From contig NC_043007.1 of the NCBI RefSeq assembly GCF_006345805.1, forward strand, positions 49,476,001-49,540,000: 64,000 bases of DNA, read 5' to 3'. The stretch is from Octopus sinensis. Lineage: Eukaryota. This document shows positions 1,594-57,997 of the stretch, piece after piece (position 1 is the stretch's first letter; each line of letters begins with the position of its first letter). The translations under genes were made by a program, and so were the position numbers. The notes beneath the pieces are model-generated. The model made no database searches. It was not told the origin of the DNA and saw nothing but the letters and a program-made list of their open reading frames with translations.

Positions 1594-1677
1594 GGTTACA
1601 TATGCTTCATAGCTTGCGGAATTTCAGAAGTAGTAATTATCTAAACGAGGAGTAGACCGCAAGCAACTCCTCAGACC
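1594..1677 (-). ncRNA. Type-I hammerhead ribozyme, long stem II, GAAG variant
   Basis: Minus strand: ggt-CTGAGGA-gttgcttgcgg..ccgcaagctat-GAAG-catatg-TA-acc. Stems I and II pair; stem III is palindromic. Confidence 0.65.
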
Positions 1678-1843
1678 AAGGATACCTTGATTATATTGTC
1701 GTTAGGAGTTCCCCGTGTTAACTGGCAGCCGGATCGAAAATAATATCTGTATCTATTTCTCTCTCTCTTTCTGTATATATATATATATATATATATATAT
1801 ATATATATATATATATATATAGATAGATAGATAAAGATAGTTA

Positions 1844-2374
1844 TTGTAATGTTATTCTCAGTTCGAATATGCTTGAGGCACGTTCGAACCGGTGAACAAG
1901 TTATTCACTGCGTTTTGTCACGGAAATTATATCATTTTGTTAACAAAGTGTGTGTATAAATCCAGATCAGCTCGCAGCACCAACTACCAAGACTGTGAGA
2001 TGCAAGCATTTCGGAATAGTTATCCCCACTTTGGTCATAGAAACCAGGCAGGCGGTACTACACTCTAATCGAAGTGACTGACATTTTTATGCTTTTCCAG
2101 TTGCCATACGGCAACTGGCAGCGCTGTACGGCGGCTCACCGTAAGTAAATTACAGAGGGGGGGACACTCGCAGTACCGCCTGCCTTGTGTCCGTGACCGA
2201 AGACAAGGTAACTACTCTGAAATGCTTGCATCTCACGGTCTGGGTAGTTGGCGTTGAGAGCTGATACAGGTGTATGCACATCATTTGTCAAAAAACGGGA
2301 TATATAAAAACAGTGAATAGCTTGTCCACCAGTTCGAACGTGCCTCAAGCATATTCAGACCGATATCTTTACAA
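1844..2374. mobile_element. Foldback/MITE-like element with long imperfect inverted arms
   Basis: 1865-1910 is the reverse complement of 2311-2356. ~1965-2060 pairs with ~2172-2265. Flanked by microsatellites. Confidence 0.7.
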
Positions 2375-2564
2375 TTTTACTTACCGCATATATATATATA
2401 TATATATATATATATATATATATATATATATATATATGTATGTATGTATGTATGTATATATATTGATAGAAATGGTAATACAACAAAAAAAATTAAAGAG
2501 ACCTCGATATTATGTAAATAGAGGAATTTATCTGTAAATATAATATGTGACAATTATTCGGTAG

Positions 2565-2632
2565 CCGTGATAAAACTCCGAGTTTCGGATGTCGGGGCGG
2601 AAACCTACGCCGCCATTTCTTCAGTTATCCGG
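2565..2632 (-). ncRNA. Type-I hammerhead ribozyme
   Basis: Minus: ccggataa-CTGAAGA-aatggcggcg..cgccccgacatcc-GAAA-ctcggag-TT-ttatcacgg. Stem I is gataa/ttatc, extended by ccg/cgg. The base of stem II is mismatched. Confidence 0.65.
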
Positions 2633-2827
2633 CCATCGAAAAGAAGCTATGGAAATGACCGTTAAACGAAGGGAAATTACTGTGTGATTGACCGTTATTA
2701 AAACAAAAGAGCTATTAGAGTGAAAGCTAAGTGAGGGGAGGGAGTAAAGGTAAGGGAATAAAAATATTCATGGTATTCGCGTAAGCGCGCATGTCCATAC
2801 TTTTGTCTTAATAACGGTCAATCACAA

Positions 2828-2942
2828 AAGAGACCGATAGAATAAGTACTAGGCTTACAAAGAATAAGCTCTGGGGTCGATTTGCTCGACTAAAGGTGGT
2901 GCTGCAGCATGCTGCAGTCAAATGACTGAACAAGTAAAAGAA
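2828..2942 (+). mobile_element. 3' fragment of major tRNA-derived SINE (family A)
   Basis: Matches the 3' end of the full copy at 59439-59850 (gaccgatagaataagtact...gtcaaatgactgaa..aagtaaaaga). Confidence 0.85.
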
Positions 2943-54790: not shown

Positions 54791-55239
54791 TAATAGTGGT
54801 TTTATCTCTAATTTAATATATATATATATATATATATATATATATATATATATATATATATATATATATATATATATATATATATATAATACAAAATGGG
54901 ACAAGAACGTAAAACATCCGGACAGCTAGATGATACAAAAAGGGACAACAAAACATCCAGATAGACGATACAAAGAAAACAAGGACGGGTCATTCAAAGT
55001 TTTCTTTCTTCAGGCCTCGCACCAGATTGTCCTCGCAACTTCGGCTGATTATTCTTGAGATTGCTCCAATCTGGCCAACCCCAAGGAAAAACTAAGCTAA
55101 GAGCATTAGATTCCTTGGAAGAAAGTAGCGAATGTATACAAAAACAAGGATGGAAAAAATGGACAATGTTACACAAAAATACTATATAAAAATTATATAA
55201 TGGTCATATCATTAACTTTCTTGAATAACGATATGGATT

Positions 55240-56155
55240 CACAGTAGCCAGTAGTCTACGTTTTTGTTTGCAAACAGACCATAGACATCTAATAATGACA
55301 TACGGATCCAAGAAAGAATCCGGATACATACGACAAGCAGACTGCAGCGGTCGGGGTACCATTCAGTTATACTACGATTTTAAAATGGAATATCTGCACT
55401 CAAAAACGTTGGGACATGCCGATGATCTATCTAGGCTAATTCCGAAAAATAACGAACCGCTGGAGGACACCGTAATAGAAGCGCTAAGAGCAGAAGCAGA
55501 AACAAAAAAAGTGATGTGGAATAGCATGCGTGAACTACTTGTAACTTTGGAAGAAATAAAAAGAAATGCGAGAAATGGAAAATTTATTGACGAGACAAAA
55601 AGAAAACTGTGGTCGACAAAAGGAATAAAAAAAGGTCTGATGCAAAGAACCGCCAAGATGTGAACGTGTACTCTATATGTGACTATGTACTAATGTACGC
55701 TCAGAGGGTGGTCATACCAAAAACATTACAGAAGAGAATGCTAAATGTGGGACATCTAAGCATCTCTAGAATGAAAGCGTTGATGCGAAGTTTCGTATAC
55801 TGGCCAAGCACGGACAAGGAAGTTGAAAATATTATTACTTAATAGTAGTGGACAGCTACACAAGATGACCTGAGGTCAGGAGATGTAAACAACTGACCTC
55901 ATAAACGGTAATAAACTTCTTACACAAGCTGTTCGCAAGATTTGGTGTACCTGTTATAATTGTCTCTGATAACGGAACACAGTTTGTATCCTGTGAGTTT
56001 AAAGTATTCTGCAAAATGTTCACATTAGAAAATGAAACTATAGCACCGTATCACCCTAGAACGAATGGAAGAGCCGAACGTTTCGTGGACACTTTTAAGG
56101 AAATGACGGACGAGGTCGCGATCCAACAATTCTTACGGGTATACAGGATAACTCC
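55240..56155 (+). mobile_element. Ty3/gypsy pol remnant (RNase H to integrase)
   Basis: LQTDHRHL, GHADDLSRL, GHLSISRMKALMRSFVYWP, IVSDNGTQF, PYHPRTNGRAERFVDTFK. Confidence 0.9.
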
Positions 56156-56164
56156 GTGGCCAAA

Positions 56165-57570
56165 TATAACCATTGTCCGTCTCTACAGGCCTCCCCAAGC
56201 TCCTTTCTCCCAAGATATAACTCCGGGAACATATTGATGACAGGTAACTTTAACCTCCCCTATGTGAACTGGCTTACAAATACTCTGAAGTTAAGTAACT
56301 GCACTACACCAGACAAAGCAACAGTAACATTACTATTTAATTTAATGGATGAATTTTTCTAACCCAACTTGTGCTTGAACCAAGACAAGGCAGAACGATC
56401 CTGGACCTGATACTAATAAACTATGTTATCTCCATCTACAGCATTTCAGTTGAAAAAAACTCTCCTCTCTGACCACGACATGGTATTATGGTATTTTGCA
56501 ACCTTATTTTCTGGCATGTGAAAGCCAAACCAGTCACCCTCGCCCCAGAGAATCTGTTCGACAGCATCAATCTTCAAAAAGCAGTCTGGGGAGCAATTAG
56601 AAAATATCTGTCACTTACTGACTGGTCTTTCACTCATAGTTCCTCTGACACTGAAACAACAGTTTGAGAATATTGCCACTTGACATGCTTAAAACACATT
56701 CTTACAAAACTCACAAGCACAATTAGAAATAGGCTTCCAAGTGAGAGAAAAGAATACTCATCAAGAGAATCAAAAGACAAAAGAAAAAAATTCAGCCATT
56801 TAAAATGCTACAACCAACAGCATCCACATTCATCGGCAATAAGAAGACTTGAGTCGAAAAAGATTCATCTGAAGAACAGCATGAAAGCTTACATCGACAA
56901 CCAAAGAGCTGCAAAGAAAAAACGTGGTATTAAAAAAAAATAAAAATAAAACAGAATCCGAAAGTGTTCTATTCATATGCCAAGCATAGGACCACTGTCT
57001 TACCCGTTGGTCAATAAATAGATGATAACATTTCCCACCATAATGCAAAAGAAATGGTAGAAATATTGCAGAAACAACACTTCTTTGTCTTTAGTGATCC
57101 CAATGATATTGAGGCAAGGGATCTGAACAAACGCAATCCCCAACATATTATCTCTGACTTAACTTTTACCGCCTCAGACATCATAGGACTAATAAATAAA
57201 ATCAAGTACTATTCTGCAGCAGGCTCTGATAGCTTCCCCGCTGATGTCTTGAAGGAATGCTGACACAAACTTACAACGACTCTAACCAACTTCTGGAGAA
57301 ATTCTGTAGTCTTAGGTTACATACCGGAACATTTCTTATTCCATTCTATCATTCCGGTCTTCGAAAAGGGAAACAAGTCTCTTGCAGTCAACTACCGTCC
57401 ATTCCCATTCATTTCTCATATAATCAAAGTGTTTGAAAGGGTGGTGAGATCAAGGATAGCTGGTTTCCTTGGCGAGCCACAACTTTCTAAATCTCAACAA
57501 GCATGACTTTCACTGCGGCAAGGATTGCTCAACACAACTCTTACATCACATCGAAGATGTCCTTAAAGGT
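56165..57570 (+). mobile_element. CR1-group LINE remnant (APE to RT start), related to 47682-50215
   Basis: LYRPP, TGNFNLPYVNW, EILQKQH..VFSDP, AGSDSFPA..LKEC, AVNYRP. Confidence 0.85.
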
Positions 57571-57955
57571 TATTAAATTGGTATGTAAAAGTAGTAACTA
57601 ATGTTAGATCATAGGGGGGCAACGATAATGTGAGATGTGAGGGTTGTAGTTATTCCATAGGATTTCAAAGATACATGAATAAATGAACTCACTATCAATT
57701 ATATACACACACACACACACACACACACACACACACACACACACACACACACACACACACACACACCACACACACATATATATATATATATATATATATA
57801 TATATATATATATATATATACATACACACATATACATATATATAGGCAACGAAAAATTGTAAAAAAGGCAGAATGCTAAATTGAAGGTAAATTTTAATGA
57901 ATATGGGTGTATGGAAAATTTTTTAAAATAAAAAAAATATATATATATATATAAT

Positions 57956-57997
57956 AATTCAAACCGGTTTTCGTTGCAATGCGACTTTTCAAGAATT
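57956..57997 (-). ncRNA. Hammerhead with U3-A8 core
   Basis: aattc-TTGAAAA-gtcgc att gcaac-GAAA-accggt-TT-gaatt, downstream of a PLE-like C-terminal trace (TPYGFN) near 58190. Confidence 0.65.

Follow-up and report, generated by a model that had tools for sequence, protein, structure and literature searches.

Thousands of diverse single hammerhead motifs, probably truncated PLEs, have been described in other animals (Cervera and de la Pena, 2014; PMC4209133). Per genome, Schistosoma mansoni is reported to have 2,000 + 1,300, the coelacanth about 4,000 and Xenopus tropicalis 9,000, to be compared with 13 in the window, the whole 64-kb stretch of DNA analysed here. Our motifs resemble these PLE pseudo-LTR hammerheads in their type-I topology, the palindromic 15.2-16.2 region, the U3-A8 variant, the extra base before stem II in some of them, their extreme diversity, the presence of opposite-strand pairs, and in being mostly single motifs tied to truncated PLEs. 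The palindromes differ, being 2-4 nt or absent in PMC4209133 and, in the window, 6 nt long in five cases and 7-10 nt long in two others.

The coding remnants in the window recall the Neptune and Nematis EN+ PLEs (PMC8557442), in which RT is followed by a GIY-YIG endonuclease at the C-terminus and a CX2-5CxxC linker is present (seen by translation in our remnants B and C). This linker has been tied to a microsatellite bias, and inverted truncated copies and tails have been described in the same work. Shared with these elements are 5' truncation, an inverted truncated copy at the 5' end, a tail at one end and microsatellite targets. The likeness is one of description, not of a tree; the tail of the family found at 30192 is 58 nt instead of 30-40, and the window holds no full-length copy. 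Naiad elements with a half-core hammerhead (HHR_half_core) also have core halves 35-50 nt apart and (TA)n targets (PMC8557442), but their endonuclease is N-terminal, unlike the C-terminal one of our remnants.

The metazoan non-LTR retrozymes (PMC7229834; bioRxiv 10.64898/2026.07.22.740005) are short ORF-less units (about 170-400 nt) of low GC with one type-I hammerhead, high copy number and a presumed dependence on PLEs; the unit at 30192 appears to resemble them in these respects and, alone in the window, in an inferred monomer of about 353 nt. What defines a retrozyme, however, is circular RNA together with tandemly repeated units that each bear a ribozyme, and neither is seen here, the window having no head-to-tail array; the 30192 copy shows instead the anatomy of a PLE insertion (a target duplication, an inverted arm and two 3' ends). 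Of nine predicted Xenopus retrozyme dimers, eight did not cleave in vitro (bioRxiv 10.64898/2026.07.22.740005), and in reviews PLEs are only "likely candidates" for mobilising animal retrozymes (PMC7761336). Our literature search, mostly of papers outside subscription, found no cephalopod report matching the window and no non-autonomous PLEs with inverted arms.

Results

A type-I hammerhead-shaped motif occurs about every 5 kb of the window (Table 1). With a scored type-I descriptor that allows mismatches and bulges, and that was adjusted after the sites were known and thus tuned on these same 64 kb, 11 sites scored at least 8, whereas 60 local dinucleotide shuffles averaged 0.28 such sites and never had more than 2; seven outscored every match from the 60 shuffles. 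The original observation is partly confirmed. A strict descriptor (set A) found three sites only (30192, 36807 and 54622), against 0.15 per shuffle, and three were reached in none of 40 shuffles; a looser one (set B) found five, against 1.1 per shuffle, with five reached in one of 40. An initial over-strict descriptor, relaxed once, gave no site in the window and was replaced. Hammerhead families accounted for none of the 126 Rfam matches to the window at E<=1, and no hammerhead model matched three stretches of 110-150 nt at E<=10; the matches in both scans were only microsatellite and hairpin noise. A covariance model built from 11 motifs of foreign PLE loci was dropped, the stems being out of register in the alignment.

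Table 1. Hammerhead motifs, PLE coding remnants and insertions in the 64-kb window. Motifs are named by the positions used in the text.
Feature	Position	Strand	Remarks
1594, hammerhead motif	1594..1677	-	G15.1; 6-nt palindrome; stem II span 59 nt; score 10.1; ~200-nt unit between (TA)n arrays
Unit carrying 2565	2466-2799		334 nt; 27-nt inverted piece at 2800-2826
2565, hammerhead motif	2565..2632	-	core complete; stem I long, stem II interrupted; odd palindrome of 7 nt; score 13.6
PLE coding remnant A	7316..8306	+	RT C-terminal part and endonuclease; frameshifted
9117, decayed minimal hammerhead	9117..9152	+	paralogue of 17883; ~815 nt behind remnant A
10458, hammerhead motif	10448..10542	-	full core; stem II span 56 nt; weak stem I; score 13.4
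17883, minimal hammerhead	17882..17919	-	U6; CG palindrome; stem II preceded by an extra A; 673 nt behind remnant B
PLE coding remnant B	18587..20423	-	RT with DKG motif; CX4CxxC linker; C-terminal GIY-YIG
26824, 3' half only	26824..26838	-	GAAA and 4-nt palindrome; unsupported as ribozyme
Whole 30192-family insertion	29924..30409	+	12-bp direct repeats at 29924-29935 and 30398-30409
30192, best-formed hammerhead	30192..30236	+	score 16.2; predicted cut after 30230
36807, minimal hammerhead	36809..36841	-	solo 3' end related to family A/B; strict and scored descriptors, homology
40352, decayed hammerhead	40348..40440	-	stems I and II and GAAA kept; T run replaces 5' core box
46029, hammerhead motif	46022..46072 (motif 46029-46068)	+	absent from the earlier list; U3-A8; G15.1; 4-nt palindrome; score 10.0
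Fold-back	46996..47305	.	two head-to-head copies, each a 3' half-hammerhead without 5' core
47496, hammerhead motif	47496..47540	-	U3-A8; 6-bp stem I; worn stem II; score 12.4
Head-to-head PLE-type insertion	50872..51974	+	between (TA)n arrays; inverted truncated copy and sense copy
51498, hammerhead	51498..51612	+	stem II forms an 85-nt hairpin (fold z = -4.9); 6-nt palindrome; stem I weak; score 12.9
Fold-back	52127..52473	.	3' half-hammerheads of the 10458-unit family; palindrome different
PLE coding remnant C	52773..54281	+	RT; CX4CxxC linker; C-terminal GIY-YIG
54622, hammerhead	54625..54690	+	stem II span 39 nt; 6-nt palindrome; score 14.8; 347 nt behind remnant C
57956, hammerhead	57956..57997	-	U3-A8; 6-nt palindrome; score 14.6; 713 nt behind remnant D; (TA)n 9 nt away
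PLE coding remnant D	58705..59448	-	GIY-YIG (PF01541, E 6e-5)

The 11 scored sites are ten of the 13 previously listed plus the unlisted 46029. Two more listed sites, 9117 and 40352, are decayed copies; the latter, as the top match (17.3) of a core-agnostic scan, exceeds all matches from 15 shuffles. The thirteenth, 26824, is not supported, because such 3' halves are common in shuffles (6.3 for each shuffled window, against 14 in the window itself); we attribute a weak tblastn match at 26785-26919 (E 0.048) to chance. The window thus holds 13 hammerhead-shaped motifs in varied states of decay, made up of the 11 scored sites and the two decayed copies. The palindromes quoted in the original prediction are all present where it placed them, and the half-hammerheads that it noted at 47210 and 52271 are real, each lying inside one of the two fold-backs.

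The core was tested as C3UGANGA9 (or U3-A8), G12AAA and U16.1-H17 in type-I order. Eight of the 13 listed sites have it without deviation, six with C3-G8 (2565, 10458, 30192, 36807, 51498 and 54622) and two with the U3-A8 covariation (47496 and 57956); two more deviate once (G15.1 at 1594, U6 at 17883), as does 46029, and the core is not found complete at 9117, 40352 and 26824. The C3-G8 and U3-A8 pairs covary in all 11 scored sites. Both deviations recur, U6 being common to 17883 and 9117. The G15.1 and U6 variants, longer palindromes or long stem II may already have been described in a 2017 study by Lunse and colleagues on PLE hammerhead variants or in the supplements of the papers cited here.

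Many copies are worn in structure. Stem I has just 2-3 contiguous pairs at 1594, 10458, 36807, 51498 and 54622; both 2565 and 47496 have an interrupted stem II; and at 1594, 2565, 36807 and 54622 the fold of minimum energy is not that of a hammerhead. The G-C pair closing stem II (G10.1-C11.1) is found at 17883, 36807, 46029, 51498 and 57956 and absent at 30192, 54622 and 1594, and an extra base follows position 9 at 17883 and 36807. Stem II spans 31-85 nt at five scored sites. The stem III palindrome is perfect and even at nine of the 11 scored sites, odd at one and contains a G-U at one. By energy calculation, the stem III dimer duplex reaches -5.2 to -18.9 kcal/mol at nine of these sites and -1.7 at the two CG sites; a forced monomer hairpin costs +2.1 to +6.0 in eight, is impossible in two, and reaches -1.7 in one, this sole site stable as a monomer hairpin being 10458 with its 10-nt near-palindromic stem III. 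Since the monomer stem III is unstable, two copies are predicted to pair as a dimer. The scores, the foreign loci described below and these energies support the earlier assignment to type-I hammerheads of the PLE kind with a palindromic stem III. What is unusual is the density of motifs, the 6-10-nt palindromic stem III and the stem II spans of up to 85 nt.

A PLE profile built from 154 of 157 fetched PLE proteins, covering one clade, found exactly four coding remnants in the window, each with a motif, which bears out the "about four" of the original prediction. In all four the endonuclease follows RT, with no N-terminal GIY-YIG before RT, and the distance from the end of the endonuclease to the motif, which lies downstream and on the same strand, is 347 to about 815 nt. 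Pfam GIY-YIG matched in remnants B and D, and full-length relatives carry RT and GIY-YIG. The terminal location in a PLE is therefore direct for four sites, and comes through homology for 36807. With the scorer unchanged, 49 foreign PLE loci (154 kb) gave 11 matches, all on the sense strand and none antisense; eight of the 22 loci with a match reaching the endonuclease have a motif 312-695 nt behind it. The foreign loci also show U3-A8 cores, 4-nt palindromes and one G15.1, with stem II spans of 13-23 nt in the 11 matches. At eight of the 11 scored sites of the window, the 150 nt on the 3' side of the cut contain a (TA) array of at least five repeats; the 5' side has one at none of the 11, against a background of 9%. 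A suspected decayed endonuclease 5' of 40352 was unsupported by the PLE profile.

By the same one-clade profile, nine solo units of 200-780 nt have no coding remnant. In seven of them the sequence left 5' of the core is only 70-282 nt long, less than the 3' UTR of a PLE, so that 5' truncation alone would leave them without coding sequence. Homology (z=14) links the solo unit 36807 to the 3' terminus of coding copy B (17883), and 9117 matches 17883 at 73% over 255 nt; other family links join 10458 to the fold-back at 52271, and 46029 to 47496 in the 3' flank. Altogether z exceeded 5 in four of 120 pairs, all in the same orientation and none in the opposite one. For the other eight solo units, no homology link to a coding copy was found in the window, and no unit forms a tandem array there. 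In the head-to-head insertion, the inverted truncated copy (50872-51040) is 98.8% identical to 51629-51797.

At 30192, the 12-bp repeat is found at the two ends of the insertion only and reads as a target duplication. The inverted arm (29936-30065) consists of the 3' end of the unit, a 17-nt linker and then a copy of its 5' start; the sense copy is 30064-30399. From 336 + 17 nt at this single 3'-to-5' junction, a repeat of about 353 nt would follow. Diverse loose ends at 29935 and 29993 mark two 3' ends 58 nt apart. Searching DNA-type sequencing runs with 1 kb around 30192, the sole unit examined for copy number, returned 7,741-10,892 contigs per run; in run X1 the summed depth over the ribozyme was 197,000-301,000 against 1,300-5,600 over the left flank, a contrast and not a copy number. 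Among the variants listed (40 of 150), relatives carry G at 30208 in 96-98% of depth, which would restore a 4-bp stem II, and these variants bear on core conservation across the family only in part. Record 26 of run X4 does not clearly fit the periodic model, with 176 unplaced letters 5' of 30069, where linker and 3' end are expected. The 29936-to-30105 joint is absent among the 15 of 203 joints listed, and a 29887-30411 joint, a possible empty site, was set aside with sides of just 27-30 letters. Contigs of run X15 (guessed to be RNA) cover the unit, one across the predicted cut, and are uninformative on expression or cleavage. The 21-nt motif of the ribozyme had no match in viral contigs. 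The anatomy resembles the Poseidon element PAc of Anolis (PMC11167929), with a ribozyme lying close on the 5' side of two alternative 3' ends, which delimit a tail, and with an AT-rich target; behind the PAc ribozyme, however, comes the start of the ORF, and behind that of 30192 a return to sequence 5' of the ribozyme. The 30192 unit is likely a short, non-autonomous, retrozyme-like family of its own, and may copy itself as a non-coding unit of about 350 bases.

Discussion

Based on our results, we propose that the window holds 13 motifs, four of them behind PLE remnants, and that the rest are probably 5'-truncated 3' ends of about ten PLE families predicted to have inserted at TA-rich targets, 30192 being likely a separate non-autonomous family. 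The ribozyme motif lies in the 3' terminal region of RT-then-GIY-YIG elements, as seen behind the four remnants. Its self-complementary stem III is predicted, from the energies and published PLE work, to pair two copies as a dimer. The PLE protein would nick AT-rich DNA and start reverse transcription at points 10-370 nt away from the ribozyme on its 3' side; if this often ended early, short solo ends, head-to-head inversions and fold-backs would be left. Any copy spanning the cut site must, by its sequence, derive from uncleaved or re-ligated RNA. For the 30192 family, the template may have been a head-to-tail or circular RNA of about 353-nt periodicity, mobilised in trans by PLE machinery. 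Most copies have decayed since insertion.

The original prediction saw in the window a large and diverse non-autonomous population. That is supported for 30192; for most of the others it is unneeded, as 5' truncation suffices (seven of nine are too short for coding sequence regardless, and 36807 is the end of a coding family), the same picture as published for other animals (PMC4209133). That most solo units are true retrozyme-like families, amplifying with the help of cleaved, circular RNA and of PLE protein that they borrow, seems to us rather unlikely, even with nine units devoid of coding remnants, the high copy of 30192 at a repeat size like that of mussel retrozymes (350-390 bp, PMC7229834), a 334-nt unit at 2565 whose inverted piece likewise duplicates sequence lying 5' of its ribozyme, and a 2026 preprint deriving animal retrozymes from PLE termini (bioRxiv 10.64898/2026.07.22.740005). 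Besides the short units and 36807, it has against it that long palindromes and long stem II also lie behind coding copies C and D, that the window lacks tandem repeats and that copy number was examined for one unit. Another possibility is that the palindromic motif has been retained not for cleavage but because PLE ribonucleoproteins use it as a signal for RNA-RNA dimerisation or protein binding, the hammerhead core being largely inactive. In its favour, the cut site is contained in every genomic copy, the U6 (17883 and 9117) and G15.1 deviations recur, and in the anole PLE, whose protein is a predicted dimer, catalytic mutants had no effect on insertion, the main substrate was uncleaved RNA and no RNA-seq ends fell at the cut site (PMC11167929). 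The covariation in 11 of 11 sites fits instead selection on a catalytic core; we regard a mere signal as unlikely, though deserving of some weight, and it concerns function and is compatible with a PLE origin.

Chance matches picked by a permissive eye in AT-rich, repeat-rich DNA would agree with the empty Rfam scan and with the background of loose descriptors (1.1 per shuffle in set B, 6.3 half-sites), and do account for 26824. For the other 12 listed sites chance is refuted by the seven sites above all matches in 60 shuffles, the strand and position bias behind ORFs both here and in foreign loci, the one-sided (TA)n association and the stem-restoring variant in the relatives of 30192; as a general account it is highly improbable. 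Host-domesticated regulatory ribozymes, for which nothing speaks beyond the density, are just as implausible: all motifs lie in transposon debris, most are decayed, and 30192, the one examined, is a high-copy repeat with private mutations in the window copy. We retain 5'-truncated PLE ends as the likely main source of the solo motifs.

The core of this finding is known biology, because thousands of diverse solo PLE hammerheads have already been published. The scale would be new, as would the 30192 family and the enlarged stems by which the motifs escape Rfam. As a tentative and bolder reading, this animal lineage might carry an extreme hammerhead load missed by Rfam (about one per 5 kb, with 6-10-nt stem III palindromes and stem II up to 85 nt) and, as part of it, a dispersed retrozyme of about 353 nt whose copies bear a PLE insertion signature (AT-rich target duplication, inverted arm and two priming ends) and a 3'-to-5' junction, which would show directly from the genome that retrozyme RNA in circular or tandem form is retrotransposed by PLE protein. 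If true, the existence of a 353-nt unit in high copy with the anatomy of a PLE insertion would allow a direct test of whether PLEs mobilise animal retrozymes. The palindromes, which range from 2 to 10 nt and differ between related families, form a natural series for comparing dimer with monomer cleavage and for studying family-specific pairing.

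Results

The motifs quoted in the original prediction are all present in the sequence, and the observation is real and well above chance. A strict type-I descriptor, controlled with local dinucleotide shuffles (n = 40), recovered 3 sites against 0.15 per shuffle (0/40 shuffles reached 3), and 5 against 1.1 when one core change was permitted (1/40 reached 5). Because inspection by eye of the missed sites revealed worn stems and U3-A8 core covariation, the latter already described in schistosome Penelope-like elements (PLEs) in PMC4209133, we wrote a scored descriptor. At a threshold of ≥8 it recovers 11 sites, well above the shuffled density (mean 0.28, maximum 2, 60 shuffles), and 7 of them exceed every shuffled match. 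Ten were on the original list and one, 46029, is new. Since the window itself had served to tune this scorer, it was then applied unchanged to 49 foreign PLE loci, giving 11 matches, 11 sense and 0 antisense; where the locus reaches the endonuclease, 8/22 carry a match 312-695 nt behind it. Rfam models detected none of the window's hammerhead motifs, and the 235 Rfam hammerhead-1 loci counted in the giant squid genome paper fit with Rfam missing the present motif class.

Among the listed sites that the scorer did not recover, 9117, a paralogue of 17883, has decayed, while 40352 has lost its 5' box, retains 8-pair stems I and II and ranks first in a core-agnostic scan (17.3, above all matches of 15 shuffles). 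Site 26824 was rejected as a ribozyme, having only a 3' half whose frequency is at chance level. Twelve of the 13 motifs originally listed are thus hammerhead-derived, as is 46029.

Searches by tblastn, and with a profile made from 154 of the 157 PLE proteins retrieved, found exactly four coding remnants in the window. Each has a motif downstream on the same strand (347 to ~815 nt), which bears out the earlier count of about four motifs on PLE coding remnants. At 8/11 scored sites the 150 nt 3' of the predicted cut contain a (TA)≥5 run, against 0/11 on the 5' side (background 9%); such one-sided placement is expected if the motif sits near the 3' end of the element and insertion targets are rich in TA. 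The inverted truncated copies and fold-backs agree with the head-to-head PLE structure described in PMC8557442. When 16 units were compared pairwise, 4 of 120 pairs proved to be related, each with both members in the same orientation, so that ~10 groups remain. The 3' flank of the 10458 unit recurs in the 52271 fold-back, but their palindromes differ (10 and 6 nt), although both are self-complementary.

Features of the window
Feature	Position	Strand	Detail
PLE remnant A	7.3-8.3 kb	+	tblastn/profile
PLE remnant B	18.6-20.4 kb	-	tblastn/profile
PLE remnant C	52.8-54.3 kb	+	tblastn/profile
PLE remnant D	58.7-59.4 kb	-	tblastn/profile
Inverted truncated copy	50872-51040 vs 51629-51797		98.8%
Inverted truncated copy, 30192 unit	29994-30065 vs 30328-30399		
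Fold-backs	46996-47305; 52127-52473		
Broken non-LTR RT remnants (several) and an integrase remnant	24059-26050; 28.6-32.6 kb; 37.9-39.9 kb; 43.3-43.7 kb; 47810-50188; 55229-56234; 56394-57568		integrase: rve, Integrase_H2C2
SINE-like family	2825-2953; 11489-11730; 20760-21066; 22060-22211; 32920-33011; 34940-35360; 59431-59847; 62364-62758		at least 8 copies, 69-92% alike
Composite repeat	3203-5292; 34069-34517		(AAT)n + 20-22-nt minisatellite; 576-bp local duplication, 98%
19-bp minisatellite	27383-27737		18.5 copies, nearly perfect
Decayed reading frame	650-1560	-	adjoins 1594 unit
Imperfect palindromic element	1843-2441		600 bp, ~70%; arms 1936-2059, 2172-2295

One foreign PLE contig carries two hammerheads 723 nt apart (2813-2870 and 2090-2141), one with an 8-nt palindrome and the top score (20.8), the other with the core deviation G15.1. 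At four further foreign loci (L046-L049), hammerheads follow PLE RT-endonuclease genes on short contigs that were binned with bacterial genomes, probably as contaminating animal DNA.

Discussion

The original prediction saw in these motifs a large population of non-autonomous retroelements. For most of the units without coding remnant, our main reading is that they are 5'-truncated PLE ends. The nine solo units keep 70-282 nt 5' of the core in 7/9 cases and ~450-460 nt in the other two, so that 9/9 fall within 3' UTR length and the absence of coding sequence is no evidence of non-autonomy. Moreover, coding copy B ends in sequence homologous to the 36807 unit (z=14). Coding copies C and D, too, are followed by six-base palindromes and a stem II span of 39 nt, and PMC4209133 reports heterogeneous single motifs, thousands in each genome, that are probably truncated PLEs.

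Non-autonomy finds its support in the 30192 unit. This insertion is bounded by a 12-bp direct repeat that occurs solely at 29924 and 30398, and its inverted arm reads as the unit 3' end, a 17-nt linker and the 46 nt with which the sense copy opens, upstream of its ribozyme. As the 3' end is thereby joined to sequence 5' of the ribozyme, the template would be periodic (336 + 17 = 353 nt), without room for an ORF and of the same size as mussel retrozymes (PMC7229834). Contigs from 4 of 24 listed public runs (coded organisms A-F) were aligned to 29700-30700 at 80% likeness, with 7,741-10,892 per DNA-type run. In one run (X1), summed depth, which is a contrast and not a copy number, is 197,000-301,000 over the ribozyme; the left flank has 1,300-5,600 and single long contigs have 36-73, so the unit belongs to a high-copy family. 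In its relatives, position 30208 is G at 96-98% of depth, converting a mismatch of the window copy into a 4-bp stem II, and none of the 40 variant rows listed, of 150, falls on core positions. Loose ends accumulate at 29935 and 29993 with low agreement (0.40-0.45); they define two 3' termini separated by 58 nt, as is characteristic of a PLE tail, and in the anole element such ends mark two reverse-transcription starts (PMC11167929). Against the repeat stand 176 unplaced letters 5' of 30069 in X4 record 26, and no junction-spanning joint appears among the 15 listed of 203. On balance we hold the 353-nt reading a little better than even, and this family is a promising candidate for retrozyme mobility driven by PLEs. 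A contig in X1 and X4 links both flanks of the insertion (29887/30411; skip 523; sides 27-30 letters), possibly its empty site.

Calculated intermolecular stem III duplexes range from -5.2 to -18.9 kcal/mol at 9/11 sites (-1.7 at two CG sites), and the monomer hairpin is unfavourable or impossible at all scored sites except 10458. Judging from these energies, two copies would pair through the palindromic stem III and cleave as a dimer, as published for PLE hammerheads. Free folds are hammerhead-like at 17883, 30192, 47496 and 57956, and at 10458 and 51498 they form the stem II hairpin; those at 1594, 2565, 36807 and 54622 differ, which counts against activity of these copies. Every full motif extends across its cut site, so the RNA copied into the inserted cDNA was either uncleaved or re-ligated; this agrees with the anole element, in which cleavage is dispensable for insertion (PMC11167929). 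The motif may therefore serve to process tandem precursors to monomers or circles, or it may act through pairing alone.

PLE hammerheads, their diversity, U3-A8, solo copies and retrozymes as PLE derivatives are already known from the literature consulted, which also included PMC6765202, PMC6155905, PMC7761336, PMC6962438 and a 2026 preprint. Our searches returned no report of such hammerhead density (here that of one window, not genome-wide), of 6-10-nt palindromes combined with 31-85-nt stem II spans, or of a dispersed unit of retrozyme size that shows the insertion anatomy of PLEs. Stem II spans reach 31-85 nt in the window versus 13-23 nt in the foreign PLE matches. The window mostly presents a known phenomenon at high density, the stem sizes being unusual.

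The window (GC 37%) is rich in microsatellites and retroelement debris, which marks it as animal DNA. Its SINE-like repeats may resemble octopus repeats, and the decayed frame, which has no Pfam match, shows a putative likeness to a Tc1/mariner transposase. The palindromic element, flanked by (TA)n arrays, is MITE-like or resembles an old fold-back. In the 334-nt 2565 unit, a 27-nt inverted piece (2683-2709 vs 2800-2826) lies at the 5' junction and duplicates sequence 5' of the ribozyme, as in the 30192 unit; this could reflect either another periodic family or a snap-back confined to this site.
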